Assembly (NCBI GenBank): GCA_964016885.1
Contig: OZ024741.1
Coordinates: 126,356,001 to 126,420,000, forward strand
Source: Eledone cirrhosa
Taxonomy: Eukaryota
Reading direction: 5' to 3'
Length of the DNA stretch: 64,000 nt
Position 1 is the first letter of the stretch; each line of letters starts with the position of its first letter. A program made the position numbers and the translations under genes. Shown piece after piece: positions 3,606-60,136 of the stretch. The notes beneath the pieces were generated by a model. The model searched no databases and was not told the origin of the DNA. It saw only the letters and a list, made by a program, of their open reading frames with translations.

Positions 3606-3655
<50 letters not shown>
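3503..3655. repeat. (TAC)n/(TGC)n microsatellite
   Basis: Direct reading. Confidence 0.95.
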
Positions 3656-3656
<1 letters not shown>

Positions 3657-6600
3657 CAACGCCACACCAACCATAGCCACCCCGCCACACCAACTATAGC
3701 CACCCCGCCACACCAACCATAGCCACCCCGTCACACCAACCATAGCCACCCCACCTCTCCTCCAACGCCACACCAGCCATAGCCACCCACCACACCAACT
3801 ATAGCCACCCCGCCACACCAACCATAGCCACCCCGTCACACCAACCATAGCCACCCCACCTCTCCTCCAACGCCACACCAGCCATAGCCACCCACCACAC
3901 CAGCTATAGCCACCCACCACACCAACCATAGCCACCCCGCCACATCAACCATAGCCACCCCGCCACACCAACCATAGCCCCCCCCCACCACATCAACCAT
4001 AGCCACCCCGCCACATCAACCATACCCACCCCGCCACACCAACCATAGCCCCCCCCACCACATCAACCATAGCCACCCCGCCACATCAACCATAGCCACC
4101 CCGCCACACCAACCATAGCCATCCCGCCACACCAACCATAGCCACCCTACCAACCATAGCCACCCCGCCACACCAACCATAGCCACCCCACCACACCAAC
4201 CATAGCCCCCCGTCCCCCCCCATACCACCATCCACATCAACCATAGCCACCCCGCCACACCAACCATAGCCACCCCGCCACACCAAGCATAGCCACCCCA
4301 CCTCACCTCCAACGCAACACCAAACATAGCCACCCCACCACACCAACCATAGCCACCCCGCCACATCAACCATAGCCACCCTGCCACACCATCCATAGCC
4401 ACCCCGCCACACCAACCATAGCCACCCCATCTCACCTCCAACGCAACACCAACCATAGCCACCCCACCACACCAACCATAGCCACCCCGCCACATCAACC
4501 ATAGCCACCCTGCCACACCAACCATAGCCACCCCGCCACACCAACCATAGCCACCCCACCACACCAACCATAGCCACCCCACCACACCAACCATAGCCAT
4601 CCCACCACACCAACCATAGCCACCCCACCACACCAACCATAGCCACCCCACCACACCAACCATAGCCACCCCACCACACCAACCATAGCCACCCCACCAC
4701 ACCAACCATAGCCATCCCACCACACCAACCATAGCCACCCCACCACACCAACCATAGCCACCCCACCGCACCAACCATAGCCATCCCCGCCACACCAACC
4801 ATAGCCACCCGCCACATCAACCATAGCCACCCCACCTCTCCTCCAACGCAGCACCAACCATAGCCACCCCACCACACCAACCATAGCCCGCCCGCCACAC
4901 CAACCATAGCCACCCGCCACATCAACCATAGCCACCCCACCTCTCCTCCAACGCCACACCAACCACAGCCACTCCACCACACCAACCATAGCCATCCACC
5001 ACACCAACCATAACCCCCCGCCACACCAACCATAGCCACCCGCCACATCAACCATAGCCACCCCACCTCTCCTCCAACGCCACACCAACCACAGCCACTC
5101 CACCACACCAACCATAGCCATCCACCACACCAACCATTGCCCCCCCCGCCACACCAACCATAGCCACCCGCCACATCAACCATAGCCACCCCACCTCTCT
5201 TTCAACGCCACACCAACCACAGCCACTCCACCACACCAATCATAGCCACCCCACCACACCAACCATAGCCACCCCGCCACATCAACCATAGCCACCGCAC
5301 CTCTCCCCCAACGCCACACCAACCATAGCCACCCTACCACACTAACCATAGCCACCGCACCTCTCCCCCAACGCCACACCAACCATAGCCACCCTACCAC
5401 ACTAACCATAGCCACCCCACCTCTCCTTCAACACCACACCAACCATAGCCACACCGCCACATCAACCATAGCCACCCCACCACACCAACCACAGCCACAC
5501 CACCACACCAACCATAGCCACCCCACCACACCAACCATAGCCACCCCGCCACACCAACCATAGCTGCCCCGCCACACCAACCATAGCCACCCCACCACAC
5601 CAACCATAGCCACCCCACCACACCAACCATAGCCCCCCCGCCACACCAACCATAGCCACCCGCCACATCAACCATAGCCACCCCACCTCTCTTTCAACGC
5701 CACACCAACCACAGCCACTCCACCACACCAACCATAGCCACCCCACCACACCAACCATAGCCACCCCGCAACATCAACCATAGATGCCCTACCACACCAA
5801 CCATAGCCACCCCACCAACCACAGCCACTCCACCACACCAACCATAGCCACCCCACCACACCAACCGAAGCCACCCCACCAACCATAGCCACCCCGCAAC
5901 ATCAACCATAGATGCCCTACCACACCAACCATAGCCACCCCACCAACCACAGCCACTCCACCACACCAACCATAGCTGCCCCACCACACCAACCATAGCC
6001 ACCCCACCAACCATAGCCACCCCGCCACACCAACCATAGCCACCCCACCACACCAACCATAGCCACTCCACCACACCAACCATAGCCACCCCACCACACC
6101 AACCATAGCCCCCCCGCCACACCAACCATAGCCACCCGCCACATCAACCATAGCCACCCCCACCTCTCCTCCAACGCAGCACCAACCATAGCCACCACAC
6201 CACACCAACCATAGCCACCCCACCACACCAACCATAGCCCCCCCGCCACACCAACCATAGCCACCCGCCACATCAACCATAGCCACCCCACCTCTCTTTC
6301 AACGCCACACCAACCACAGCCACTCCACCACACCAACCATAGCCACCCCACCACACCAACCACAGCCACTCCACCACACCAACCATAGCCATCCACCACA
6401 CCAACCATAGCCACCCCACCACCCCAACCACAGCCACTCCACCACACCAACCATAGCCATCCACCACACCAACCATAGCCATCCACCACACCAACCATAG
6501 CCACCCCACCACCCCAACCACAGCCACCCCACCACCCCAACCATAGCCATCCACCACACCAACCATAGCCATCCACCACACCAACCATAGCCACCCCACC

Positions 6601-9600
6601 ACCCCAACCACAGCCACCCCACCACCCCAACCACAGCCACTCCACCACACCAACCATAGCCATCCACCACACCAACCATAGCCACCCCACCACCCCAACC
6701 ACAGCCACCCCACCACCCCAACCACAGCCACTCCACCACACCAACCATAGCCATCCACCACACCAACCATAGCCATCCACCACACCAACCATAGCCACCC
6801 CACCACCCTAACCACAGCCACCCCACCACCCCAACCATAGCCATCCACCACACCAACCATAGCCATCCACCTCACCAACCATAGCCCCCCGCCACACCAA
6901 CCATAGCCACCCCGCAACATCAACCATAGCTGCCCCACCACACCAACCATAGCCACCCCACCACACCAACCATAGCCACCCCACCACACCGACCATAGCC
7001 ACCCCACCACACCAACCACAGCCACACCACCACACCAACCATAGCTACCCCACCACACCAACCATAGCCACCCCGCCACACCAACCATAGGTGCCCCGCC
7101 ACACCAACCATAGCCACCCCACCACACCAACCATAGCCACCCCACCACACCAACCATTGCCACCCCACCACACCAACCATAGCCACCCCACCACACCAAC
7201 CATAGCCACCCCACCACACCAACCATAGCCACCCCACCACACCAACCATTGCCACCCCACCACACCAACCATAGCCACCCCACCACACCAACCATAGCCC
7301 CTCCGCCACACCAACCATAGCCACCCGCCACATCAACCATAGCCACCCCGTCTCTCCTCCAACGCAGCACCAACCATAGCCACCACACCACACCAACCAT
7401 AGCCATCCACCACACCAACCATTGCCCCCCCGCCACATCAACCATAGCCACCCCACCTCTCTTTCAACGCCACACCAACCACAGCCACTCCACCACACCA
7501 ACCATAGCCACCCCACCACACCAACCATAGCCACCCCGCAACATCAACCATAGATGCCCTACCACACCAACCATAGCCACCCCGCCACATCAACCATAGC
7601 CACCGCACCTCTCCCCCAACGCCACACCAACCATAGCCACCCCACCACACTAACCATAGCCACCCCACCTCTCCTTCAACGCCACACCAACCATAGCCAC
7701 CCCGCCACATCAACCATAGCCACGCCACCACACCAACCATAGCCACCCCGCCACATCAACCATAGCCACCCCACCAACCACAGCCACACCACCACACCAA
7801 CCATAGCCACCCCACCACACCAACCATAGCCACCCCGCCACACCAACCATAGCTGCCCCACCACACCAACCATAGCTGCCCCACCACACCAACCATAGCC
7901 ACCCCGCCACATCAACCATAGCTGCCCCACCACGCCAACCATAGCCACCCCGCCACATCAACCATAGCCACCGCACCTCTCCCTCAACGCCACACCAACC
8001 ATAGCCACCCCACCACACTAACCATAGCCACCCCACCTCTCCTTCAACGCCACACCAACCATAGCCACCCCGCCACATCAACCATAGCCACCCCACCAAC
8101 CACAGCCACACCAACCATAGCCACCCCACCACACCAACCATAGCCACCCCGCCACACCAACCATAGCTGCACCGCCACACCAACCATAGCCACCCCGCCA
8201 CACCAACCATAGCCACCCCGCCACACCAACCATAGCCACCCCGCCACATCAACCATAGCCACCCCACCAACCACAGCCACACCACCACACCAACCATAGC
8301 CACCCCACCACACCAGCCATAGCCACCCCGCCACACCAACTATAGCCACCCCACCATACCAACCATAGCCACCCCGCCACACAAACCATAGCCACCCCAC
8401 CACACCAAACATACCCACCCCGCCACACCAACCATAGCTGCCCCGCCACACCAACCATAGCCACCCCGCCACACCAACCATAGCCACCCCGCCACACCAA
8501 CCATAGCTGCCCCGCCACACCAACCATAGCCACCTCACCACACCAACCATAGCCACCCCACCACACCAACCACAGCCACCCGACCACACCAACTATAGCC
8601 ACACCACCACACCAATCATAGCCACCCCGCCACACCAACCATAGCCACCCCACCCCACCAACCATAGCCAGCCCACCTCTCATTCAACGCCACACCAGCC
8701 ATAGCCACCCCGCCACACCAACCATAGCCACCCACCACACCAATCATAGCCACCCCACCTCTCCTTCAACGCCACACCAGCCACAGCCACCCACCACACC
8801 AACCATAGCTACCCCACCACACCAGCCATAGCCACCCCACCACACCAACTATAGCCACCTCACCACACCAACCATAGCCACCCCACCACACCAACTATAG
8901 CCACCTCACCACACCAACCATAGCCACCCTACCACACCAACTTTAGCCACAACACCACACCAAACATAGCCTCTGCACCACACCAACCATAGCCACCCCG
9001 CCACACCGACCATAGCCACCCCATCACACCAACTACAGCCGCCCCGCCACACCAACCACAGCCGCCCCGCCACACCAACCATAGCCACCCTGCCACACCA
9101 ACCATAGTCACCCCACCACACCAACTATAGCCACCCCACCACACCAACCATAACCACCCCACCACACCAACCACAGCCGCCCCGCCACACCAACCATAGC
9201 CACCCTGCCACACCAACCATAGCCACCCCACCACACCAACCATAGCCACCCCGCCACACCAACCATAGCCACGCCACCACACCAGCCATAGCCACCCCGC
9301 CACGCCAACTATAGCCACCCCACCACACCAACCATAGCCACCCCGCCACGAAACCATAGCCCCCCCCACCACACCAAACATACCCACCCTGCCACACCAA
9401 CCATAGCCACCCCACCACACCAACCATAGCCACCCCGCCACACCAACCATAGTCACCCCACCACACCAACCATAGCCACCCCACCACACCAACCATAGCC
9501 ACCCCACTACCCCAGCCATAGCCACCCCGCCACACCAACCATAGCCACCCCGCCACACCAACCATAGCCACCCCGCCACACCAACCATAGCCACCCCGCC

Positions 9601-10342
9601 ACACCTACCATAGCCACCCCACCACACCAACTACAGCCGCCCCGCCACACCAACCATAGCAACCCCACCACACCAACCACAGCCGCCCCGCCACACCAAC
9701 CATAGCCACCCTGCCACACCAACCATAGTCACCCCACCACACCAACCATAGCCACCCCACCACACCAATCATAGCCACCCCACCACACCAACCACAGCCA
9801 CCCCACCACACCAACCACAGCCGCCCCGCCACACCAACCATAGCCACCCCGCCACAACAGCCATAGCCACCCCACCACACCAACCATAGCCACCCCACCA
9901 CACCAGCCATAGCCACCCCGCCACACCAGCCATAGCCACCCCACCACACCAACTATAGCCACCCCACCACACCAACCATAGCCACCCCGCCACACCAGCC
10001 ATAGCCACCCCACCACACCAACTATAGCCACCCCGCCACACCAGCCATAGCCACCCCACCACACCAACTATAGCCACCCCACCACACCAACCATAGCCAC
10101 CCCGCCACACCAGCCATAGCCACCCCACCACACCAACCATAGCCACCCTACCACACCAACCATAGCCACCCTACCACACCAGCCATAGCCACCCCGCCAC
10201 GCCAACCATAGCCACCCCACCACACCAACCATAGCCACCCCGCCACACCAACCATAGCCATCCCGCCACATCAACTATAGCCACCCGCCACACCAATCAT
10301 AGCCATCCCGCCACATCAACTATAGCCACCCCGCCACCCCGC
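3656..10342. repeat. About 6.7-kb minisatellite with a 23-bp unit ACCATAGCCACCCC(G/A)CCACACCA and variant units
   Basis: Continuous tandem array; it is the source of all W/G/V-rich minus-strand ORFs in the track. Confidence 0.97.
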
Positions 10343-12647: not shown

Positions 12648-12650
<3 letters not shown>

Positions 12651-12777
12651 CTTCGAAACGGCTGGAGCTCAGCCGTCGGGGTCCTGACACTTTTCCTATT
12701 ACCCACTCTACTACCCTAAGTATCGAGTACTCTGGTGCGTTATGGTTCATCCGGTTCCTTACCACACTTCCTTCGTT

Positions 12778-17605: not shown

Positions 17606-17805
17606 NNNNNNNNNNNNNNNNNNNNNNNNNNNNNNNNNNNNNNNNNNNNNNNNNNNNNNNNNNNNNNNNNNNNNNNNNNNNNNNNNNNNNNNNNNNNNNN
17701 NNNNNNNNNNNNNNNNNNNNNNNNNNNNNNNNNNNNNNNNNNNNNNNNNNNNNNNNNNNNNNNNNNNNNNNNNNNNNNNNNNNNNNNNNNNNNNNNNNNN
17801 NNNNN
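17606..17805. other. Assembly gap (200 N)
   Basis: Run of N. Confidence 1.
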
Positions 17806-22146: not shown

Positions 22147-22150
<4 letters not shown>

Positions 22151-22815
22151 GGAAAAAATGAAACGAAATTTCATTTCTCACACTTGGTACGGCTGTTACT
22201 TAAATATAAGTATGTATACGTAATACATATATGTATACAGACGTACAGTAGTATGTATATATATATACATGCACACATATATATATATATGTACGTATGG
22301 ATTCACCGAACATTATTATAATGCTCGGGTGTTTGTAAACAAACATCCCGAATTAAGCCGTACAGTGTCTAGCAACAATCGTTGCTCATTTGTTCAACCT
22401 GACAAAGGAACGCTGTACTAGTTTCAAACTTATTAGCTATCGTAAGAGTGAGAAATGAAATTTCGTTTCATTTTTTCCGTTTATCGTTTTCGGTACCCCG
22501 GCCGATTAACTCACTCGATATGCAAATTAGGCTGCTCAGCCGTTAATGTGCATAAGGAAAAGTTCATACTTTCAGACGTTCAATCATCTGGCAGGAAGGT
22601 ATACGTTGCTGACGATAGCTAATAAGCTTGAAACTAGTACAGCGTACCTTTGTCAGGGTTGAACAAATGAGCAACGATGGTTGCTAGACACTGTACGGCT
22701 TAATCGGGATGTTTGTTTATACGTACACATATATATATGTGTGCATGTATATATATATATACATACTACTGTACGCCTGTATATATATATGTATGTACGT
22801 ATACATACTTATATA
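22147..22815. mobile_element. Nested inverted-repeat pLTR element
   Basis: 22337-22443 is the reverse complement of about 22612-22719; 22147-22181 of about 22448-22482; about 22205-22277 of 22721-22812. Confidence 0.85.
22602..22646 (+). ncRNA. Type I minimal hammerhead ribozyme (45 nt)
   Basis: tacgttg-CTGACGA-tagct aata agctt-GAAA-ctag-TA-cagcgta. Confidence 0.9.
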
Positions 22816-25648: not shown

Positions 25649-26208
25649 TCTTACTAGGCATTTGAACTGTCAACAGGCTGCGGTTCGCACACACATCCCT
25701 GCTGACCATTATCACAACAACGAACCTCTTTACTACTACTACACACACACACACACATATTTGTTGTGAAAGACTTATCTCTCAGTCAGCCGACACAAAC
25801 CTACATTTGGCGCAAAATCAATTTTTTACATTCACATGACCTCTACCGACCAATCAAAATTGTTTTGACCACAAGAATTTTTGCAACACGAATTGGCGCA
25901 AAACTTATTTTAATACCGCTGGAGCCACTTTTTCAACATAAAAACAGGTAGAATTCCCAAAACTAATCAGATCAGAGCAAACATCACGGACGCTCTATCT
26001 CAAAATTATTTTTGAAAAGCATTAGAAATGCGCAACCGGTAAAACTTAAAACCAAAACTTAATACTAACCAATACTATTACTAATTATCACTTATTCCTA
26101 ATTAAACTATTTTTCACTGTGAACAATTTGTCAGCATTTTCTATTCCGTTTACCAATATATATATATAAGCGAAGTAGTTTAAGATATTAAAGTCCTTTA
26201 ATGATAAT

Positions 26209-26283
26209 GCTGTGATACATATTTCAATGACGACAGTGGCCACACGCTTCGGTGCACCGAGTGCCGTGACATCATCAGAAAGC
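26209..26283 (-). ncRNA. Type I hammerhead ribozyme with branched stem II
   Basis: gcttt-CTGATGA-tgtcacggca..tcggtgcaccga..gtggccac..tgtcgtcatt-GAAA-tatgta-TC-acagc. Confidence 0.8.
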
Positions 26284-26964
26284 TCCTTACATAATAAGGT
26301 TATATTTCCGAGGCAATCCAAATTGAATCGACATGGGAACGGACAAAGCGTGTGCTCTTGAATTCTTCGCCCGTTCCCTTGTGAGTCCCAATTCACCCCC
26401 ACCGGTCTGCTCAGGCGCTAGTCCGAAGGAAGTTGACCATCAACTACCCCAAAGTTCTACGAAACTCGCCTAGGCAGGTCCCCTTCTCAACCAAACAATC
26501 ACCTCATCCAGGTCTGTAATATGACACGGTTATAGTTTACTGCTAGTCGCCCTGCCAGTGGCAGTTGGCCGAAACCTAGTGGTGGTGGGAGAGTATGAGT
26601 TTTAATAGGTCTCAATACTACCCCTAAATTAAGCATGGACAATAGAATTGACCATCACCCGCTAAGAGAATATATACTTATTTCTAGGTATTATGGTTTC
26701 ACAGTGGAAATTATGATTAATAATTAGAAATTAAAAATTAAAAATTAAAAATCAAAAATCAAAAATTAAAAAAATTATAAGTTACAATCTTGATTGAAGT
26801 AAGTAAAAAAATATGTACATATAATAACTAATAAATAGGGAGATGTTTAAATTATAGTAAGAAGTTTTGAAAGGGGGATCAATATTACAGATATATTATC
26901 CATATATTGAACGATAGTACCGTACAGTAGAACGGAGGGTAAATTACAGTATGAAACGTAGTAA

Positions 26965-27360
26965 TTAGTAGGCAAATACATAGTTAATATCTCTATCACA
27001 TGAATCAAAACAAAAAATACAAAAAATACATGGATGCAAAATGAGATAGGACATATATATGTAAAATGAGATAGGAGATATATATGAGAAACATATACGA
27101 GGAAGGTAAACTTTATGGAAATGAGGGTATAAGTGGTTAAGATGATTGTCAATTTTGTCCATGTAAAGTGCATATAAAAATTCGTTATCTGATGAAGTGA
27201 GGGGGCTTCCGTTCAAGGCCTCTGTGCAAATACAATCTGCTGCGGGAAAATAGGGGTTTATGGTTGTTTTTAGTTCCGCGTATTTATCCTGACGAAAGTT
27301 AGTTTATAATTTTATGTCCGTCCAGTAGCAGGGATTTCAGCGTGTGTAATCAATTCCCAT
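26965..27360 (-). pseudogene. Orphan 132-codon frame with 2 stops inside the non-autonomous unit
   Basis: ctaccATGg start; MGIDYTR*NPCYWTDIKL*TNFRQDKYAELKTTINPYFPAADCICTEALNGSPLTSSDNEFLYALYMDKIDNHLNHLYPHF..., in frame with track ORF 26965..27216. Confidence 0.35.
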
Positions 27361-27784
27361 GGTAGAGGGAATTTCCGGGTGTAGCTGATGGCTGGTTCCT
27401 CTCTTCGCCACTATATCGGTTATACCATAGAGCGCTCAACGCTTTGGAGCTAAATTCTTAAGGTAAATATTGATGCAATTCAATTCAAGCACTCAACGTA
27501 CTTTTTCCACATAGGAGTGACGGAGTATATATCGAATAAGAAAAAGCGAAATAATTTCAGATGTTAAAGTCCTTTAATGATAATGCTGTGATACATATTT
27601 CACAGTTGATGATACATATTTCATAGTTGATGGTCAACTTCCTTCGGACTTGCGCCTGCGCAGACCAGTGGGAGTGAATTGGGACTCACAAGGGAACGAG
27701 CGAAGAATTCAAGAGCACACGCTTTGTCCGTTCCCATGTCGATTCAATTTGGATTGCCTCGGAAACAAGCTAATTATGTAAAAA

Positions 27785-27859
27785 GCTGTCTGATGATGTC
27801 ACGGCACTGGATGCACCGTAGCGTGTGGCCACTATCGTCATTGAAATATGTATCACAGC
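27785..27859 (+). ncRNA. Type I hammerhead ribozyme
   Basis: gctgt-CTGATGA-...-GAAA-tatgta-TC-acagc; perfect stem I. Confidence 0.88.
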
Positions 27860-27986
27860 ATTATCATTAAAGGACTTTAACATCTGAAACTACTTCGCTT
27901 TTTCTTATTCGATATATACTCCGTCACTCCTATGTGGCAAAAGTAGGTTGAGTGCTTGAATTGAATTGCATCAATATTTACCTTAA

Positions 27987-28019
<33 letters not shown>

Positions 28020-28844: not shown

Positions 28845-29314
28845 GATATAAAACCTACCCAAAATAACAATATTCAATTAAACAACTGTAACTGTAGAAA
28901 TAAATCTAAATGTCCGTTAAATAACAATTGCTTAGTTAAAAATATAATATACAATTGTAATGTTAAAACTAACTTAAATTCTTTAACTATGTTGGTTCCA
29001 CCTCGACAGAATTTAAACTTCGCTACAATAATCATAAGAATTCTTTCACAGATCCAAACAAGAAATCTTCAACTTCACTATCAGGCTTACTCTGGCAACT
29101 TAAACATGATAACGTTGGGTATTCGATGTTTTGGAATATTGTCTCAAGAGGGATTCCTTTTAATTCCTCATCTGAGACATGTGACCTCTGTGTGGAGGAG
29201 ATATTCTTTATATTAAAATCTAAAAATTCCCTTCATTTAAGGAGCAATTTATTCAGTTGCTGCAGACATAGATTGAACTCAACGTTTAAATATAAATATA
29301 AATTTAAAATGTAG
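28845..29314 (+). pseudogene. 5'-truncated PLE: Zn linker + GIY-YIG endonuclease; its 3' region extends to the HHR and tail at about 31135
   Basis: CNCRNKSKCPLNNNCLVKNIIYNC..YVGST..RYNNH..CDLCVEE..RSNLFSCCRH, with a frameshift. Confidence 0.92.
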
Positions 29315-34113: not shown

Positions 34114-34259
<146 letters not shown>

Positions 34260-34541
34260 GTCATAATCTGCAGCGTCGATGAGTGCTATATGTAGACTTA
34301 ATAAAGAAGTGTTAGATTTCTAGGCAATTTTATTTCACAGATTTAACGAACTGTATTTATGAATTCATTTTTCATGTTCAGGAAATTGGCTTGCATGAAA
34401 ATATAAAGTTAAGGTTTGAGGAACCATTTCTTTTCGTTCACACACATATGCGGTAAAACACATATATGCACACGATCATGCATATTCACGTGCACACACA
34501 CACACACTCATACAAACATCTCTCTCTATTCCCCTCTCTCT

Positions 34542-34633
<92 letters not shown>

Positions 34634-34655
34634 TGGTTAAACAACAGTTAGTTCA

Positions 34656-34706
34656 CCATACCGAGAACAATTGTTTCACCTTAGCGGATCCTCAGCTCGG
34701 AATGGG
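34656..34706 (-). ncRNA. Type I minimal hammerhead ribozyme (inverted copy)
   Basis: Reverse complement of 35459-35510. Confidence 0.82.
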
Positions 34707-35458
34707 CATGGTTATAGGAACAGGAAGGACAACTGTACGAACGCGCATGCGCAGAATCCCGGTCACTTCACACAGGCAATACTAGACTGCGTGCGAGAGG
34801 TGTAAGGGAGATAACTGCGAAAGTCCGAAAAGTTTTTAGGTTGCCCACCAGGGTGCTCTTGCCGTAAGCCTGAAGCTTGCTCCCTTCAACAGCAATGCAA
34901 CACACCCGCTGTAATTTATGAAGCTGTGGTCACTTCCAACCGACCAAACGAACCACAGGAGGTCAAATCCTATGTGGGTATGGCGGAGGGCCGATTTAAG
35001 GAACGCTTCCTGAACCATCAGTCACCTTCAGGTACCCGGACAGACGTTCATCCACGAAACTCGCGAGCCACGTATGGTCCCTCAAGGACTCAAGTATAGA
35101 CTACTCCGTTCAATGGAAACCCATCACTAAGTCCAAGCCATACGCAAGGGGAAATCCGACGTGTGGCTTATGTATTGACGAACGAATAACTATTCTAAAG
35201 AGATTACGCAATAGTGATTGCCTAAACACGAGAAATGAATTTTTCACACATTGTCCATACATCGCCAAACACCTATTGCATAACTACAAGGCTCCGGACT
35301 GATTCTTTTTAATTTTATTTTCAACCTAAAAACCTTTCGAACTTTCACAGTTATCTCCCTTACACCTCTCGCACGCAGTCTAGTATTGCCTGTGTGAAGT
35401 GACCGGGTTTCTGCGCATGCGCGTTCGTACAGTTATCCTTCCTGTTCCTATAACCATG

Positions 35459-35510
35459 CCCATTCCGAGCTGAGGATCCGCTAAGGTGAAACAATTGTTC
35501 TCGGTATGGG
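35459..35510 (+). ncRNA. Type I minimal hammerhead ribozyme
   Basis: ccgag-CTGAGGA-tcc gctaa ggt-GAAA-caattg-TT-ctcgg. Confidence 0.82.
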
Positions 35511-35590
35511 GAACTAACTGTTGTGTAACGACTTCTACCTAACTCGTCTGAGTGCTCTACCAGTACGGATATTACCTTCCAGTGTTCCAC

Positions 35591-35671
<81 letters not shown>

Positions 35672-35962
35672 AGGGATGGAAGCATCTTAGCTACCATCAG
35701 AGACATATATATATATATATAAAACCAAAATTAAGATAAAATAAATTAAATGAATTTAATCTAAATCGAAATTGTGGGTGTCATCTCATAAGGCATGCAC
35801 CATATATCCTGGAAATTAAGCTCTAAGATAAATCTGAGCATATTATAATAACTAGAAATTGATTAACATATAAATATACATGAATAATCACAGGAGATAA
35901 TTTTTGCTCGCGTGTAACCACGCATAGCTAGTATAGGTAATATTTACCTTTAAGTATGATTA

Positions 35963-36062
35963 ACCTTCCTTGTATATATCCCATTAAAGAAATATATTTC
36001 ACCAATTAATCAGATGGTAAGTCACGGAAAGTGGATATTATTGGATTGTCAACAAGGAAAGT
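35963..36062 (-). ncRNA. Type I hammerhead ribozyme, U3-A8 core (inverted copy)
   Basis: Reverse complement of 36564-36663 with the same TTGACAA core. Confidence 0.85.
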
Positions 36063-36563
36063 GTAATAATTTACAGCTATCCGTACTTACAGAACGAGTT
36101 TAAATCTCCATCTAGCCGCTACCACGTGTTGTGTCTACGGTTTCGTTTCAGTGGCGTGAATAGGTATTCGACAACTAGAAATAGCAGTCAAATTTTCTTC
36201 AACAGAAATAGCTCTACAATTAAGGAGCCGTATATATATATCTAAATCCAAAATTAATTATTTATCTTAGAGCTTAATTTCCAGGATATATGGCGCATGC
36301 CTTATGACATGACACCCACAATTTCGATTTAGATTAAATTCATTTAATTTATTTTATCTTAATTTTTGATTTAGATATATATATACGGCTCCTTAATTGT
36401 AGAGCTATTTCTGTTGAAGAAAATTTGACTGCTATTTCTAGTTGTCGAATACCTATTCACGCCACTGAAACGAAACCGCTATCTTGTGTAGACACAACAC
36501 GTGGTAGCGGCTAGATGGAGATGTAAACTCGTTCTGTAAGTACGGATAGCTGTAAATTATTAC

Positions 36564-36663
36564 ACTTTCCTTGTTGACAATCCAATAATATCCACTTTGC
36601 GTGACTTATCATCTGATTAATTGGTGAAATATATTTCTTTAATGGGATATATACAAGGAAGGT
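36564..36663 (+). ncRNA. Type I hammerhead ribozyme, U3-A8 core
   Basis: actttccttg-TTGACAA-tccaat..attggt-GAAA-tatatttc..gggatata-TA-caaggaaggt; 10-bp stem I. Confidence 0.85.
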
Positions 36664-36949
36664 TAATCATACTTACTTAAAGGTAAATATTACCTATACT
36701 AGCTATGCGTGGTTACACGCGGGCAAAAATTATCTCCTGTGATTATTCATGTATATTTATATATTAATCAATTTCTAGTTATTATATATATATATATGTA
36801 TATTGTTTAGAAAATGTAAGATGACGCATGTCGAAACATCAGCGACCCACAGCAGACGGCCGAAGAGATGGAATTGTCCTTATGTTGTGTTTCTCTTATT
36901 TTTTCTAAACAATATTTATTAGTAACCACACAGCGCCTTTGTCAACTTT

Positions 36950-37140: not shown

Positions 37141-37340
<200 letters not shown>

Positions 37341-37347
37341 ATATATG

Positions 37348-39078: not shown

Positions 39079-39489
<411 letters not shown>

Positions 39490-45804: not shown

Positions 45805-45805
<1 letters not shown>

Positions 45806-45900
45806 AAGAGAGTGTGGTAAGCAACCAGGTGGACCATAACGTTCGGATCTGGGTGGCAAAACGGCCGGAGCTCAGCTGTCGGGGTCCTGAACTCCCCCCA

Positions 45901-45902
<2 letters not shown>
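45805..45902. mobile_element. Diverged mini-PLE pLTR fragment with inverted tail
   Basis: gtgtggtaagcaaccaggtggaccataacg + acggccggagctcagctgtcggggtcc. Confidence 0.75.
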
Positions 45903-45945
<43 letters not shown>

Positions 45946-46047
45946 AATGAAGTAATTCCATCGGAAAAGTCCAGGAAAAAATAGTGCTCTATGTATGCAA
46001 CAGAGCTTAATTATTATTATTATGTAATAAACAACATAAGGCAATTA

Positions 46048-46107
46048 TTCCATTTACCAGTGGTTTCTTAAAAGCAAAAGGTTTTGCTTTCAATCCTCAG
46101 AATGAAA
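46048..46107 (-). ncRNA. Type I hammerhead ribozyme (inverted copy)
   Basis: Reverse complement of 53919-53978. Confidence 0.85.
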
Positions 46108-46393
46108 AATCCTGGTTTGTTTATTGAATATGGATTCTAAAAACAAAAATGCAATCTATATGAAAGTGAGGCTGGAAAAGGGAGAAGGAAAGGAAAAATA
46201 AAATAAAACTACACATGCAAACACACACAAAAAAAAAAAAAAAAAAACCCCAAAGGCATACTTACACACACATACATATATACATATATATAAATGTACG
46301 CATACACATATACATATACACATATATATATATAAAGAGCGTACACATATACACACATACACATATATACACACATATACACATACATACATT

Positions 46394-46461
<68 letters not shown>

Positions 46462-46493
46462 CATACACACACACATATATATACATGTACATA

Positions 46494-46558
<65 letters not shown>

Positions 46559-46938
46559 GTGTGTGTACAAGCATACACATACACACACACATATATATAC
46601 ACACATACATACATTCACACAAACATACAACGTACATACATACACATACATGAATGCACTCCACTACATATTCACACACGCAAATAAATAAAAGAAAAAA
46701 ATATATAAATTATATTAACAAATTTTTGACAGCGATACATGCCCCAGCTAACAGGACAGACACGCGTGGTAAGTAATACACACAAAAGCACATATACATA
46801 CGTACGAAATAGTAAACACATACACACACTCTCACACATAAATATACATATACAAATACATAAACACGTACATACACATACATACACAAACACGTACACG
46901 TATATCATATAAACACACACATGTATATGTAATTATAT

Positions 46939-46991
<53 letters not shown>

Positions 46992-47399
46992 CAAAAATAT
47001 AAAAATATAAACGCACACACACATATAAATACGTAAACACACATATACATACATAGCTAAACGATTATACACATGCAAATACGTATATATCAAAAGCACG
47101 CACAACCAAATACAAACACACACACACACACACACCCACACACACACACCCACACATACATAAAAATAAATAAATACACACGCACACATATACATACATA
47201 CACATACATATACACATATATACATATACATATATATATATATACATATACATACATATATATATACATATATATGTAGGAGGTGAGTTTTATTGTAGTA
47301 CAATAAAGCAATGCAGATATCGGATAAGAAGCACTCTACAGTTTGTAGGACTGGAGTATACATAATATAAGATCAAAAGATGGTTAAAGGAGTTCCATG

Positions 47400-47470
47400 T
47401 ATTTTATTATGCGCATTTCAAAAACAAACATCATCATGCAATAATATTTGTGTTTTCATCAGATAAAACA
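47400..47470 (-). ncRNA. Type I hammerhead ribozyme (inverted copy)
   Basis: Reverse complement of 52633-52703. Confidence 0.9.
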
Positions 47471-49243
47471 GGAGAACATGATATGAAGGCTAAAAAACAC
47501 TTGTGGATAGTGCAGTTTTAAATCAACATATGAAAAGTGGTTTTAGATTGATGTGTGATATTGGGAAAAATATTTTATTTAGAGAGGGGGGTGTGGAAAG
47601 GATGAAAAAGGGGAGGAGATGAGAGGGAGAGATGGGTGATAGAGAGAGATAGTTTTTATAACTGAGAGGAGATATATTGTTTTACATAGAGAGGTTGAAA
47701 ACCGTTGGAAGATAATGTATAAATTAAAAAAATTTGAAAATTGACGAAAGGAGGATATGTGCGAGGAAAAAGTATTTTATTTAGGGAGGGGGGGGGGAAG
47801 GATGAAAAAAAGGGGGAGGAGATGAGAGTGAAGGTGGAGAGAGAGAGATGGGTGATAGAGAGAAAGAGATAGTTTTTATAACAGAGAGAAAGATATATTG
47901 TTTACATAGAGAGGTTGAGAACCGTTGGAAGATAATGTATAAATTAAAGGAATTTGAAAATTAACGAAGGGAATTTATGTATGAAGATAGAGAGAAGAAA
48001 TAATAATTGTGGATGAATATTCTAACGTCAAAAAAGGGTATGTTGATAAGTATTGTGGCAATTTCAAAATTAACGAAGAGAAAAATTATTAAGGTTTGTG
48101 TGTAGAAGGATTTGAGAAAAATAATGTGAAGTTAAAGTTTGTATATTGGAGAAATTGATAATATATGCGAATAAAGAGTTAATATGTATTAAGAATGAGT
48201 TCGTTGATGGGGAGAAAAAAATAATAAATTAAGGATGAAATTGAGATTAAAAAGATTTATGATAGAGAGAAAAAAATAATGATTGCGGATGAATATTCTA
48301 ACGTCAAAAAACAGATGTATATGTTATGAAGGATTTTACAAGGTGAAGATAGAATGAGGGTAATGAGTAAACAAGTATTATAGAGTGTATAATGCCCTTT
48401 AAAGTATGGTAGGAAGATGGGTATATTTTAAAGAGGTGTATGTATATGTGCCTTTGAGAAAAGATTCTAAATTGATAAAGAATTGAATATTAACTGTATA
48501 CTTTGTGAAAAGTTCTATGGAATTTATGCAGGCAGATAGAAAACAAATCTGTACGTCTATTTATTATAGAATCTAGGTTAGAGATAATGGTAAATTTTTC
48601 ATTTAGGCAGAGCTTACAGATTTTAGATAGAGAGCTGTTCAAGTATGAGGACGCAGAAGAAACCTTCTTCCAAAAGATGGTATATTTAATGTTTTTGTCT
48701 TTTAAGGACCATATGAGTTCTGAGAGAGCAGTGTTGGTTCTTTTAAGTTTGTATTTGAAAGATGAATGATGATTATAGAGACGAGCTTTAAAAGAGGTGG
48801 AAGTGGAGCCAAAATATGTGAAGGAATTGGTGCTAGTTATAATTTTACATTCATAAATTATGTTTTTATCGAGACAATGGTTGTTGAGAGGATATTTATT
48901 TTTAATGCGGCAGTTGCAATTAGAGAGATTATTAATGAGTGACCTAGTGTTATCTATAGAGGGAATTGGATTGGAGAAGTTGTTTGCGATAGGAATAATA
49001 GGAATAATAGTTTCTTGATTTAGAGTTGGATTATGAACATTTAGCGAAGTTGTGTTTGACGTTGTATTTGGGTTTACAGAAGTTAGCCTAGGGTTTACAA
49101 TGACGTCGGGAGTACTATTACTGTTATTATGAAATTCAATGTTGAAAACTCAATGAAATTCAATGTTGTAAAATCCTTAACGGTTGAGCGCTTACTCTCA
49201 TATTGGATACCTTTTGATGGTCCTTCACCTCTTCTTCTACAAC

Positions 49244-51638
49244 ATGGATTATTACAACATAACCAATTCAACTAAAGACATTCCTATACCTGGTAAATCT
49301 GAATTCACCAAACTTCTTATTGAAAAAACTGACTCCTTCGTAAGAAGACTTAGATGGACAGCCTATTTCTATGACCAGCGCCTAAAGGGAACTTCCATAC
49401 CAAAGAACATAACTTCCTTGATCATCCTTTTAATTCTAGACGAAATCCTCCTTCCAACAAAAATCTAGTACAATTCGAGGAAGAATTAACTAAAATAATA
49501 AAAAATCTTAAATTCAAGAGATACCCTTACAAAGGACAAGAGCACCTTGTAAATCTCAAGAACACAATCTCTAACCTAAATTCCTCAAAAAATGTTTTAG
49601 TCCACTCTGACAAAACCAATAACTTATATGGTATTTCCAAGGATAATTATAACAACCTTATCCTAAAGGAACTTAGGAAAAAGTATCGTAAAACCAACCA
49701 TGAACATTTAGAATACATAAACCTTGAAGCCTCTGATATTATGTCAAAACTTGGCATTGAAAAAAAGACCGAACCATTCCTCCCAAGAACTCCGAGGATA
49801 AATCTCAAGGATCACAAAAACAATTTTCGCACTGAACTACCTGTTAGATTAATTGCCCCCTCTAAATCTGATCTGGGGGTTGTTAGTAAAGCCATCTTGG
49901 ATAGAATTATCCCACAGGTTAGTTCTAATTGCTCTTCTTTGAACCTAAATTTATGGTTTGGTACTTCTGAGGTGATTGGCTGGTTCAACAAATTGGATAA
50001 TAAAAACAAACTAAAATTTATTCAATTTGATATTGCCAGCTACTATTCCTCCATTTCGCCTTCACTTCTCAATAATGCTCTATCTTTCGCACTTAAATAT
50101 TCTGACATCACCACAGATGAACTTCACATCATCCTCACCGCACGTAAAACCATCCTAGAGTTCAACAACGAATATTGGACCAGAGCCGATACCTCTAACA
50201 ACTTCGACATCACAATGGGAGCATCCGATTCATCCCAATTGACTGATTTAATTGGTATCTTCATTTTGAACTCTTTGAGTCGGAAAATTCCTCAACTTCG
50301 CGGTGGAATTTATCGTGACGATGGACTCTTTACTATCCTAAATTGCAATATAGTTAACCTTAATATTATTAAGAACAATATACGTAATCTCTTTAACCAA
50401 CATAACCTAAAAATTGAATTTGATAATAGTATCAAACTAGCTAATTTCTTGGATGTATCTCTTAATCTTGACACTGGCCTATATTACCCTTACCATAAAA
50501 ACAATGAGAACCTAAATTATGTTAACTTTAAATCTAACCATCCTAACAATATCAAGAATGCTATAGTTAGTAATATTGGAAAAAGAATATCTAACATATC
50601 CTCTAATAAAAACATCTTTGATGCTAACGCCAATTACTATAATAACGCACTTTCTAAAGCCGGCTATCCAGATAAAATCAAATATAGTAAAGAAACAAAT
50701 TCTAGAAAAACTTACAGTAGAATCATGATCATTCCAATAATTTTAATAAAAGACCTAGATACAAAAACATAATCTGGTATAATGCTCCTTTCTCCATCTC
50801 TATTAATAACAATATTCCTTAATTATTTTTTAGTGCCTTAAATAAATGCTTCCCTCCCTCACATATCTATAGTAAAATATTTAACAAACACATCATCAAA
50901 TTTTCTTATTCCACATCCTCCAATATTTCCAACATCATCTCTAAACACAACAATAAAATACTAAATACTAAATCTCTTCCTTCCAACATTGAATTTCATA
51001 ATAACAGTAATAGTACTCCCGACGTCATTGTAAACCCTAGGCTAACTTCTGTAAACCCAAATACAACATCAAACACAACTTCGCTAAATGTTCATAATCC
51101 AACTCTAAATCAAGAAACTATTATTCCTATTATTCCTATCGCAAACAACTTCTCCAATCCAATTCCTTCTATAGATAACACTAGGTCACTCATTAATAAT
51201 CTCTCTAATTGCAACTGCCGCATTAAAAATAAATGTCCTCTCAACAACCATTGTCTCGATAAAAACTTAATTTATGAATGTAAAATTATAACTAGCACCA
51301 ATTCCTTCACATATTTTGGCTCCACTTCCACCTCTTTTAAAGCTCGTCTCTATAATCATCATTCATCTTTCAAATACAAACTTAAAAGAACCAACACTGC
51401 TCTCTCAGAACTCATATGGTCCTTAAAAGACAACAACATTAAATATAGCATCTTTGGGAAGAAGATTTCTTCTGCATCCTCATACTTGAACAGCTCTCTA
51501 TCTAAAATCTGTAATCTCTGCCTAAATGAAAAATTTACCATTATCTCTAACCTAGATTCTATAATAAATAGACGTACAGATTTGTTTTCTATCTGCCTGC
51601 ATAAATTCCATAGAACTTTTCACAAAGTATACAGTTAA
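49244..51638 (+). pseudogene. Near-full-length Penelope-like (Naiad-type) RT + Zn linker + GIY-YIG ORF; 2 frameshifts and a stop at 50820
   Basis: STKDIPIP..LIEKTDSFVRRLRWTA; KDHKNNF..RLIAPSKS; QFDIASYY; FDITMGA; IYRDDGL; NFLDVSL; SNHP; IIWYNAPFS; CNCRIKNKCPLNNHC; LIY..YFG; RLYNH; CNLCLNEK..SICLH. Confidence 0.96.
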
Positions 51639-52632
51639 TATTCAATTCTTTATCAATTTAGAATCTTTTCTCAAAGGCACATATACATACACCTCTTTAA
51701 AATATACCCATCTTCCTACCATACTTTAAAGGGCATTATACACTCTATAATACTTGTTTACTCATTACCCTCATTCTATCTTCACCTTGTAAAATCCTTC
51801 ATAACATATACATCTGTTTTTTGACGTTAGAATATTCATCCGCAATCATTATTTTTTTCTCTCTATCATAAATCTTTTTAATCTCAATTTCATCCTTAAT
51901 TTATTATTTTTTTCTCCCCATCATATTAACTCTTTATTCGCATATATTATCAATTCCTCCAATATACAAACTTTAACTTCACATTATTTTTCTCAAATCC
52001 TTCTACACACAAACCTTAATAATTTTTCTCTTCGTTAATTTTGAAATTGCCACAATACTTATCAACATACCCTTTTTTGACGTTAGAATATTCATCCACA
52101 ATTATTATTTCTTCTCTCTATCTTCATACATAAATTCCCTTCGTTAATTTTCAAATTCCTTTAATTTATACATTATCTTCCAACGGTTCTCAACCTCTCT
52201 ATGTAAACAATATATCTTTCTCTCTCTTATAAAAACTATCTCTTTCTCTCTATCACCCATCTCTCTCTCTCCACCTTCACTCTCATCTCCTCCCCCTTTT
52301 TTTCATCCTTTCCACCCCCCTCCCTAAATAAAATACTTTTTCCTCGCACATATCCTCCTTTCGTTAATTTTCAATTTTTTTTAATTTATACATTATCTTC
52401 CAACGGTTTTCAACCTCTCTATGTAAAACAATATATCTCCTCTCAGTTATAAAAACTATCTCTTTCTCTCTATCACCCATCTCTCCCTCTCATCTCCTCC
52501 CCTTTTTCACCCCCCCCTCTCTAAATAAAATATTTTTCCCAATATCACACATCAATCTAAAACCATTTTTCATATGTTGATTTAAAACTGCACTATCCAC
52601 AAGTGTTTTTTAGCCTTCATATCATGTTCTCC

Positions 52633-52703
52633 TGTTTTATCTGATGAAAACACAAATATTATTGCATGATGATGTTTGTTTTTGAAATGCGCATAATAAA
52701 ATA
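52633..52703 (+). ncRNA. Type I minimal hammerhead ribozyme of the PLE pLTR
   Basis: tgttttat-CTGATGA-aaacacaaatattat..atgatgtttgttttt-GAAA-tgcgca-TA-ataaaata. Confidence 0.9.
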
Positions 52704-52899
52704 CATGGAACTCCTTTAACCATCTTTTGATCTTATATTATATATATGTATATATGTATATATGTATATATATATGTATGTATATGTATATATATATATA
52801 TGTATATGTATATATGTGTATATGTATGTGTATGTATGTATATGTGTGCGTGTGTATTTATTTATTTTTATGTATGTGTGGGTGTGTGTGTGTGTGTGG

Positions 52900-52930
<31 letters not shown>

Positions 52931-53467
52931 TATTTGGTTGTGCGTGCTTTTGATATATACGTATTTGCATGTGTATAATTGTTTAGCTATGTATGTATAT
53001 GTGTGTTTACGTATTTATATGTGTGTGTGCGTTTATATTTTTATATTTTTGTATGTATATATATATATATATATGTCTGTGTGTGTGTGTATATAATTAC
53101 ATATACATGTGTGTGTTTATATTATATACGTGTACGTGTTTGTGTATGTATGTGTATGTACGTGTTTATGTATTTGTATATGTATATTTATGTGTGAGAG
53201 TGTGTGTATGTGTTTACTATTTCGTACGTATGTATATGTGCTTTTGTGTGTATTACTTACCACGCGTGTCTGTCCTGTTAGCTGGGGCATGTATCGCTGT
53301 CAAAAATTTGTTAATATATATTTATATATTTTTTCTTATATTTATTTGCGTGTGTGAATATGTAGTGGAGTGCATTCATGTATGTGTATGTATGTACGTT
53401 GTATGTTTGTGTGAATGTATGTATGTGTGTATATATATGTGTGTGTGTATGTGTATGCTAGTACACA

Positions 53468-53545
<78 letters not shown>

Positions 53546-53580
53546 TGTACATGTATATATATGTGTGTGTGTATGTGTGC

Positions 53581-53625
<45 letters not shown>

Positions 53626-53918
53626 AATGTATGTATGTGTATATGTGTGTATATATGTGTATGTGTGTGTAGGTGTACGCTCTTTATATATATATATGTG
53701 TATATGTATATGTGTATGCGTACATTTATATATATGTATATATGTATGTGTGTGTAAGTATGCTTTTGGGTTTGTTTTTTTTAATTTTGTTTTTTATGTG
53801 TGTGTTTGCATGTGTAGTTTTATTTTATTTTTCCTTTCCTTCTCCCTTTTCCAGCCTCACTTTCATATAGATTGCATTTTTGTTTTTAGAATCCATATTC
53901 AATAAACAAACCAAGATT

Positions 53919-53978
53919 TTTCATTCTGAGGATTGAAAGCAAAACCTTTTGCTTTTAAGAAACCACTGGTAAATGGAA
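53919..53978 (+). ncRNA. Type I hammerhead ribozyme (second family)
   Basis: tttcatt-CTGAGGA-ttgaaagcaaa..tttgcttttaa-GAAA-ccactgg-TA-aatggaa. Confidence 0.85.
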
Positions 53979-54591
53979 TAATTGCCTTATGTTGTTTATT
54001 ACATAATAATAATAATATATATATATATATATAGAATGTTTTTATGGATCGATATTATATATCGCCCTCGAACTGTTCACTCAACTACTTGCTCAACAGA
54101 AACAGGGGTAATTTTGTTACAGTGGAGAAGCGACAACACCGAAATAAAACATACTCGGCTGATCAATAAAATTTACATTGAATCATTAAAAGTATTGATA
54201 TTTACCCGTACCATATCTTTTCAATTAAGACAAACTACTAATTACGCTCAGTAAAAATTGTTAATTAACAGTTAATTATGATATAATTTAGGACTGGCAG
54301 TATCTCATCTTTTAAACATTTATATTAAACTGGCTGATTTCTAAACGGAATAAGCAATATTCTGTTGCATCACAAAATTTCAACAAAGCTATGTTTGAAG
54401 GTTATCTAAATATATGTAGACGCATGGCTGGATGTGTGGTTGAGAAGTTCGCCTCGCCTCTACGTGTTTCTTAATTCAGTCCCAATGTGTGACACCGTGA
54501 TTATATCATTTCTACTATAACTTCGGGATGACCAATGACTTGTGAGTAGGGATTGATAGACAGAATCTGCAGAAGCACATCGTAAACGTGT

Positions 54592-59186: not shown

Positions 59187-59237
<51 letters not shown>

Positions 59238-59471
59238 TTAGAAACACACAGATACATGCGGACACACACATATATACATGAATGCATCCGCACCCAACTG
59301 TGAGTTAAGGGTGCCAACTTCACCGATGTTGCTCAATGAATGACTGGGACAGACCAATTCAGTTTGAACCAGACTGAACCAGTATCAGAGTTAAAAATAC
59401 ATTATGAAGAGAGAAGAAACATTTAGATATAATTAGTAATAAAATGTATCATACCTAAACTGTTCCTAAAT

Positions 59472-59559
59472 TCCTCGACTACGTAGTTTCGTGGCATAAA
59501 CAAAAACAATATATCAAAGATATAGAGTCCTTGCGAGGTCTGCCGACTTATCAAGAGGA
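59472..59559 (-). ncRNA. Type I hammerhead ribozyme, U3-A8 core (inverted copy)
   Basis: Reverse complement of 59942-60029. Confidence 0.85.
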
Positions 59560-59941
59560 TACCTCATTTTACTAGTCTCAAGAACGCGTCTACACGACGT
59601 GAGAAAGAATCCCAAAAGGCGGAGGGGGAGATAGTCACGCGATATAACGGTCGAGAAACAGAGCTAAGCCTCTTATAACCACGAAAAAATACCACGGAGG
59701 CGGAGGGGGTATTCATATCGAGGCCGTAGAAGAGGTAGTGAAGAAGGCGAGAAGTATGAGTAATGGAAGCTTTCCAGTTGTCCCCACACTTCAAAGATTG
59801 CTCGACCAGAGGGAGTTATTAATACATTTAGAAACACACAGATTTCTCGACCGTTATATCGCGTGACTATCTCCCCCTCCGCCTTCTGGGATTCTTTCTC
59901 ACGTCGTGTAGACGCGTTCTTGAGACTAGTAAAATGAGGTA

Positions 59942-60029
59942 TCCTCTTGATAAGTCGGCAGACCTCGCAAGGACTCTATATCTTTGATATATTGTTTTTG
60001 TTTATGCCACGAAACTACGTAGTCGAGGA
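59942..60029 (+). ncRNA. Type I hammerhead ribozyme, U3-A8 core
   Basis: tcctc-TTGATAA-gtcggca..tgccac-GAAA-ctacgtag-TC-gagga. Confidence 0.85.
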
Positions 60030-60098
60030 ATTTAGGAACAGTTTAGGTATGATACATTTTATTACTAATTATATCTAAATGTTTCTTCTCTCTTCATA

Positions 60099-60136
<38 letters not shown>

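Follow-up and report, generated by a model that had tools for sequence, protein, structure and literature searches.

Two stacked Hydra-type units in Eledone cirrhosa, each paired head to head with one short and one tailed end

The stretch analysed here is a 64,000-nt window of the Eledone cirrhosa genome (contig OZ024741.1, 126,356,001 to 126,420,000, forward strand), and all positions are those of this window. Two different Hydra-type units of Penelope-like elements (PLEs) are stacked at one locus of the window, and each forms a pair of its own, joined head to head, with one short and one tailed end. The inner unit, PLE1, is a coding element with a hammerhead ribozyme (HHR) called HHR1, and the outer unit carries a second hammerhead, HHR2. 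The features of the locus, from left to right, are as follows.

45903..45938, no strand: left target repeat (AT)18
45940..46009, minus strand: long end of the HHR2 family with its one-sided tail, by read and contig coverage; tail motif at 45983-46006
46010..46177, minus strand: HHR2-family 3' end of the left arm; HHR2 core at 46100, predicted cut after 46055
46178..47274, minus strand: T-rich stretch and degenerate TG/TA repeat block of the left arm
46733..46768, plus strand: GC island of 36 nt between splice-like sites, a candidate host micro-exon
47275..47365, minus strand: long end of PLE1 with a one-sided 91-nt tail; tail motif at 47330-47357; resembles other tails of the window
47366..49147, minus strand: left PLE1 arm with HHR1 (core 47462, predicted cut after 47408), 3' untranslated region (UTR) and GIY-YIG endonuclease region
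49129..49169, no strand: head-to-head junction with a 16-nt direct duplication, from the assembled sequence
49247..51638, plus strand: broken PLE1 open reading frame (ORF) with reverse transcriptase (RT), linker with an N-rich insert, and GIY-YIG
51639..52737, plus strand: PLE1 3' UTR with HHR1 (52633-52703, predicted cut after 52695); short end
52738..53848, plus strand: degenerate TG/TA repeat block (to about 53760) and T-rich stretch of the right arm
53849..54016, plus strand: HHR2-family 3' end of the right arm with HHR2 (53919-53978, predicted cut after 53971); short end
54017..54033, no strand: right target repeat (AT)8

Self-BLAST showed the inverted pair, 46010-49147 against 54016-50981. 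Global alignment of the two arms gave 2962 matches, 36 mismatches and 15 gap openings (1.2% of sites differ). Each arm contains the endonuclease region, the 1-kb UTR, HHR1, about 1.0 kb of degenerate TG/TA repeats and HHR2, so the original prediction, that an inverted arm copies all of these parts, is borne out. The extent given in that prediction (46010..54016) holds for the matching arms, but on the left side 70-71 nt more are carried outward and the structure reaches 45940. The UTR of the right arm has losses of 20 and 9 nt relative to the left one. Divergence between the arms is equal in the inner and the outer parts (19/1747 versus 17/1251, Fisher p=0.50).

HHR1 and HHR2 are both well-formed type I hammerheads as predicted from their sequences. 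The type I descriptor gave seven matches in the window and none in each of 100 block shuffles. Four of the seven are the copies of HHR1 (cores at 52641 on the plus and 47462 on the minus strand) and HHR2 (cores at 53926 on the plus and 46100 on the minus strand), and no further HHR2 copy was found in the window besides those of the two arms. The stems of HHR2 are 7, 12 and 3 bp long. The constrained 60-nt HHR2 fold has -11.1 kcal/mol, which is 0.6 above the minimum free energy (MFE) of -11.7, and stem I was not formed when an 81-nt HHR2 stretch was folded freely to its MFE. Rfam gave no hammerhead at gathering score, nor in 96 rows at E<=10, and its microRNA rows are matches to the TG/TA repeats, all under gathering score. 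The HHR2 pattern had 0 loci in metagenome, viral and genome contig collections. HHR2 had been described as a second, unrelated hammerhead; it is indeed well formed and unlike HHR1 in sequence, but it comes from the same clade of elements. The predicted spacings between the HHR1 and HHR2 cuts, 1276 nt on the right arm and 1353 nt on the left arm, had been given exactly. The 77-nt difference corresponds to a 91-nt block present only on the left, directly after HHR1, offset by the slightly longer repeat start on the right.

Asymmetry between the arms is seen at both levels, HHR1 and HHR2, with the short ends on the right and the tailed ends on the left. On the right arm, the TA repeats start 42 nt past the HHR1 cut and (AT)8 starts 45 nt past the HHR2 cut. 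On the left arm, 91 extra nt follow the HHR1 short end before the repeats begin, and 70-71 extra nt follow the HHR2 short end before (AT)18. The copied unit overruns the HHR2 cut by 45 and 116 nt and the HHR1 cut by 42 and 134 nt. Because both predicted cuts are overrun, the templates appear to have been uncleaved, and because the unit overruns them under every model of its origin, the idea that the repeats are ribozyme-bounded cargo is not supported. In a circle running from HHR1 to HHR2, stem I would not pair again. Low activity has been reported for PLE hammerheads (PMC4209133).

A motif of the form RCTC...RAGYRCT is found in the tails. Fifteen cores were examined in the window, and in five of the six inverted HHR pairs the motif is present on exactly one arm, 42-63 nt past the cut. 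The partner arms of these five pairs enter TA repeats +34 to +56 nt past the cut. In the sixth pair the motif is absent, and one arm is extended by 38 nt. The HHR1 and HHR2 pairs both obey this one-arm-tail rule. The pattern, which was written post hoc after the tails had been seen, matches 19 times in the window, against a shuffle mean of 4.7. The 91-nt tail of PLE1 is homologous to the tails at 2541-2625 (1 of 1000 shuffles) and 27899-27986 (8 of 1000). No overall similarity to other tails of the window was observed for the 70-nt HHR2 tail (best 432 of 1000 shuffles). Since the tail regions fold no better than shuffles (z -1.58 to +0.38), a conserved hairpin is not supported and the motif is one of sequence only. 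Among the Hydra consensi of PMC8557442 (File S7), compared by eye, two of six have the motif after the HHR, namely Hydra-2_Ajap, which is close to the HHR2 tail, and Hydra-2_Amil; by eye, one of the other four has a near match, one has the motif at its 5' start and two stop before the motif. An inverted 5'-truncated copy with a tail at one end only is the usual pattern of PLEs (PMC8557442; PMC3846280). For an anole PLE in vitro, the tail was the stretch between two RT start sites and the main template was uncleaved RNA (PMC11167929). The motif may be regarded as a candidate cis-signal for RT start. In the window it is seen just past the short end of Hydra-type 3' ends at 2541, 27450, 27526, 27918, 31059, 35542, 46006, 47357 and 60206.

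By the evidence of reads, HHR2 with its tail forms the 3' end of another Hydra-type family, one that is very abundant. A 290-nt stretch of HHR2 plus tail is present in at least 7 sequencing runs from 3 studies with 4 organism labels. Four of the 11 listed runs were aligned on 45926-46342, one of them (X9) being restriction-site-associated DNA sequencing (RAD-seq). None of the listed runs is recorded as RNA, which has no bearing on expression. The fractions of words shared with the HHR2 stretch were 0.25 for organism C and 0.21 for organism D, both of which lay outside the read alignment. The aligned records are 1796, 161 and 16 contigs together with 3802 RAD reads, where contig or read depth does not equal copy number. 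Positions 46179-46342 were skipped as repeats, and zero depth there is no evidence. Apart from those of X4, a small set, the aligned records are mostly less than 99% alike. The HHR2 tail is deeply covered and is joined to the HHR part in other copies (record 9 of X4; reads of X9 that have gaps at 46012-46017). At 46015 and 46020 loose ends run into TA repeats (11 and 30 contigs in X1), which is 5-10 nt from the right-arm end, in a part that is shorter in members of the family. At the left-arm end, changes toward TA are concentrated at 45939-45945. Because the records end at the same two places, HHR2 belongs to the 3' end of the second family and both outer ends of the locus are natural ends. 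The listed variants of HHR2 are mostly at N7 and in or beside loop 2, with two changes from G-U to Watson-Crick pairs; two rarer ones lie in stem I (46103 and 46105), and none affects the conserved core letters among 40 of 55 rows listed. Two 60-nt contigs of a high-depth variant in X5 (records 18 and 23) match the HHR2 end without a difference. The HHR2 ends of the left and right arms have 1 difference in 168 nt, indicating one shared template. Two independent HHR2 insertions were considered and rejected on this count, most family records being under 95-99% alike.

Judged by its motifs, PLE1 is a broken PLE of the Hydra clade; the named Hydra proteins were compared by eye. Its ORF (49247-51638), found as three pieces, is interrupted by two frameshifts, at about 49410 and at about 50720, and by one stop (50820). 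The three pieces align in order to full-length relatives, with RT followed by a C-terminal GIY-YIG, and YRDDG is present. The GIY-YIG match in Pfam is weak and below cut-off (E 0.016 and 0.0047), and RVT_1 was matched in just one of the six relatives scanned. Among 8000 scored candidates, 43 relatives were found at E<=1e-10, and the only named one is from Argonauta hians, with 42% identity. The RWK motif reads RRLRWTAYF, with K replaced by T, and HSDKTNN stands at the DKG position. The linker and downstream region (50823-51638) contains CNCRIKNKC (CxCx5C), CNLC (CxxC) and CLH (CxH) and is without CCHH. PLE1 also has a canonical HHR near its 3' end and is inserted into (TA)n. According to PMC8557442, the Hydra clade has DKT, CxCx5C, CxxC and CxH, is without CCHH and inserts into (TA)n, and the supplement includes Hydra-1_Obim from Octopus bimaculoides. 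An N/P/T-rich insert of about 60 residues (50975-51210) in the PLE1 linker is absent from the aligned relatives and recalls the N-rich inserts of Adineta PLEs. The PLE1 protein gave 98 pattern matches and 0 confirmed loci in metagenome contigs, and no matching solved structure was found in a structure search. Selection on the endonuclease arms was rejected, as 3 of 10 codon changes are synonymous (read by eye).

The repeat block had been described as 1.2 kb of degenerate repeats. Its degenerate TG/TA nature is correct, but its length is about 1.0 kb (52738-53760), of which 65% is in TG/TA runs. About 10 TA runs of at least 8 nt are present in each arm, and the repeat start is longer by about 16 nt on the right arm. 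(AT)6+ arrays, which bear on the suggested spread of target sites, already occur 125 times in the window. The 36-nt island (46733-46768) is 58% GC and is bordered by an acceptor-like AG and then a donor-like GTAAGT; GTAAGT occurs 30 times in the window. An exon scan listed candidates and identified no host gene, and the island failed its acceptor filter. The block was probably copied from RNA together with HHR2. On that view it is either the long low-complexity 3' UTR of the HHR2 family or host DNA transcribed upstream of an HHR2 copy. On the sense strand of the HHR2 unit, at 53754-53854, a GTAAGT has a pyrimidine tract and CAG about 100 nt further on, which is intron-like by sequence.

The reading we favour, to which we give a little less than an even chance, is a nested insertion, in which the outer HHR2-family palindrome came first and PLE1 was primed separately afterwards at its central TA run. 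The first step would have been the copying of an HHR2-family RNA, with about 1 kb of TG/TA repeats in it, into an (AT)n site to give a near-spacerless palindrome. For each pair, reverse transcription may have been primed by the two broken target ends on uncleaved RNA, from a start site just ahead of the conserved tail motif and from another one past it, and the two complementary DNAs (cDNAs) would then have joined head to head. The outer cDNAs could have annealed through a self-complementary TA run, which PLE1 would later have used. The outer ends of the locus coincide with the two usual insertion ends of the HHR2 family, so the outer pair was apparently reverse-transcribed from an RNA spanning the repeat block and running past HHR2. 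To this extent the proposal of a read-through RNA as template fits. A single pass along such an RNA, however, does not, because the joins between PLE1 and the repeats lie at two different ends of PLE1, the short one on the right and the tailed one on the left. Since both ends of PLE1 are natural ends of that element, separate priming is probable. The short and tailed inner ends, with the extra repeat start of about 16 nt on the right, are the expected trace of fresh PLE1 cDNA priming on a TA end, and a plain deletion would not give that extra stretch. A near-spacerless PLE palindrome is also present at 2192-2541, TA runs with stacked insertions are seen at 1836-2625 and 34200-36800, and two Hydra UTR-like stretches of the window consist of 1.0 and 1.6 kb of T-rich low-complexity DNA before an HHR.

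Several observations weigh against nesting. PLE1 must have struck the exact centre of the palindrome despite about 10 TA runs per arm, the inner and outer parts are equally diverged (p=0.50), as for a single event, and both long ends lie on one side. The locus at 22148-22812 repeats this long-long/short-short polarity with an HHR-free outer level, which hints at a one-step mechanism. The right-arm UTR losses (20 and 9 nt) show that deletions do occur.

These observations leave room for a single event, an amended form of the original proposal, which we consider possible but less than likely. A composite RNA made of PLE1, its tail, the repeat block, HHR2 and its tail would have been primed at the two start sites of HHR2. 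On the right arm, the PLE1 tail would have been skipped by re-priming at the PLE1 short start site, removed at the resolution of the intermediate, or deleted later between TA-rich patches; in a variant, RT jumps from HHR2 RNA to PLE1 RNA within one event. The shared position, the equal age and the same polarity at both levels, as also at 22148-22812, would then need no coincidence. The tail motif is common to the families, which makes cross-recognition plausible, and PLEs with 0.9-1.5 kb of captured host DNA before the 3' pseudo-long terminal repeat (pLTR) are known (Pen1_Av, PMC3846280). The exon-like island would be transduced host DNA. However, the skip or deletion must land on both tail boundaries and must also change the repeat start by 16 nt; no such mechanism was found described in open-access literature, and no source locus was seen.

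A further idea, which we hold to be doubtful, is that the Hydra-clade tail motif marks RT start and that the enzyme of one family primes or re-primes on the RNA of another in one event. If it were true, mixed-family mirror-image insertions would move kilobase TA/TG blocks, possibly with host exons, and could be a real source of target repeats, given a genome full of such ends.

Local DNA duplication is unlikely. Here the left side would be the starting locus, with an HHR2 stub lying in a host intron rich in repeats, and the block would never have been RNA. The right target end would have copied 1.27 kb of left flank during PLE1 insertion and then have primed on PLE1 RNA, with a template switch at AT microhomology or a nick at the tail motif as the trigger. 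Copies of left flank at two other inner junctions (38 nt at 22444-22481; about 22 nt near 59820-59842) agree with this, as do the pair at 22336, where 95 nt of repeat DNA are duplicated without an HHR, the GC-rich island with splice-like borders and the abundance of HHR2 stubs. But the copy must have stopped by chance within 5-10 nt of the short end of the family, where microhomology is about 2 nt, and past longer TA runs, and the HHR2 end, being identical to the X5 variant, is not detectably older than the duplication. An assembly artefact, either a fold-back chimera or mis-joined haplotypes, is very improbable: long inverted repeats are hard for assemblers (PMC8557442) and the central junction is known from the assembly alone, but 36 substitutions and 15 gaps separate the arms, their end points differ and match real ends of the HHR2 family, and the same architecture occurs several times in the window.

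The locus is an unusual arrangement of known parts, not a new system. Like the Hydra clade of PMC8557442, it has RT followed by GIY-YIG, the clade motifs, a canonical 3' HHR and insertion into (TA)n. Tails here are 60-95 nt long as opposed to 30-40 nt, and two families share one palindrome. HHR2 has the stem III type listed for Hydra-1_Obim, whereas PLE1 is of a different family (by eye), with a 1-kb UTR and an N-rich linker insert. Recently active PLEs are reported for Octopus vulgaris (PMC13282606). With the inverted insertions of PLEs (PMC3846280; PMC8557442, Fig. 2 legend; PMC11167929) the locus shares the inverted 5'-truncated copy, the tail at one end and the HHR-uncut template, but here the pattern is found twice, one inside the other, and 1.1 kb of repeat-rich DNA separates the levels. 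In the Pen1/Pen3 capture of Adineta vaga (PMC3846280), about 1 kb of non-coding DNA upstream of the pLTR/HHR end is likewise co-mobilised. There, the spacer lies between the ORF and the pLTR of one family, and an empty allele is given for the nonribosomal peptide synthetase (NRPS) case, whereas the Eledone locus involves two families and no empty allele was seen for it. Metazoan non-LTR retrozymes (PMC7761336; bioRxiv 10.64898/2026.07.22.740005) are similar in their non-coding DNA, type I HHRs and origin from PLE ends; theirs are tandem units of 51-972 bp with the same HHR, while here two HHRs occur without a tandem. A retrozyme monomer was rejected, as there is one HHR2 per arm, inverted and not in tandem. 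In snakes, CR1 long interspersed nuclear elements (LINEs) also bring simple repeats to new sites (PMC3157835), but their microsatellite seeding was shown genome-wide and the Eledone case is one locus. In open-access literature, neither two nested tailed pairs nor the Hydra tail motif was found described; subscription papers and Repbase were outside this search.

Two nested short/tailed pairs allow rival models, namely a second insertion, re-priming on one RNA and a DNA template switch, to be separated. This needs only one genome and one empty allele, and it bears on the inverted copies and one-sided tails of PLEs. The tail motif, found in octopus-like, coral and sea-cucumber Hydra ends, provides a concrete candidate RNA signal for the enzyme. 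If the repeat block is multi-copy, PLEs join CR1 LINEs as microsatellite seeders; if it is not, the locus is an ornate but ordinary dead insertion.

Other inverted pairs were observed in the window. At 22148-22812, a small inverted HHR pair has a 38-nt one-sided extension, and about 95 nt of degenerate TA/TG repeat are duplicated and inverted outside both ends. A 38-nt piece of its left boundary recurs at the inner junction, and this is a second two-level case, without an outer HHR. At 2192-2625, a near-spacerless palindrome with a PLE1-related HHR end and an 85-nt one-sided tail lies within a stack of TA-flanked stubs. The pair at 26169-27993 includes a partial tandem; on its minus strand the tail motif, about 1 kb of DNA that is non-coding or decayed, and an HHR follow one another, possibly as a 1.3-kb non-autonomous unit. 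At 35720-36791, the one-sided extension is the sequence that precedes the other arm (a tandem or circular unit of about 530 nt), and this pair has only a degenerate hammerhead-like core. The pair at 59233-60104 (262 nt, 99.6%) is without a canonical HHR, and about 22 nt of its left TA boundary recur at the inner junction.

Remnants of Hydra-type endonucleases are located at 5-1082 (with RT), 28896-29313 and 34851-35290, and after the second come 1.64 kb of low-complexity sequence, an HHR (30953) and a tail. The window also contains an N gap (17606-17805) and a degenerate tandem array of about 6.7 kb that is GC-richer (3650-10340). A family of TA-flanked, partly palindromic stubs is found at 39164-39354, 37288-37343, 12649-12777 and 45805-45902, the last of which adjoins the left (AT)18.

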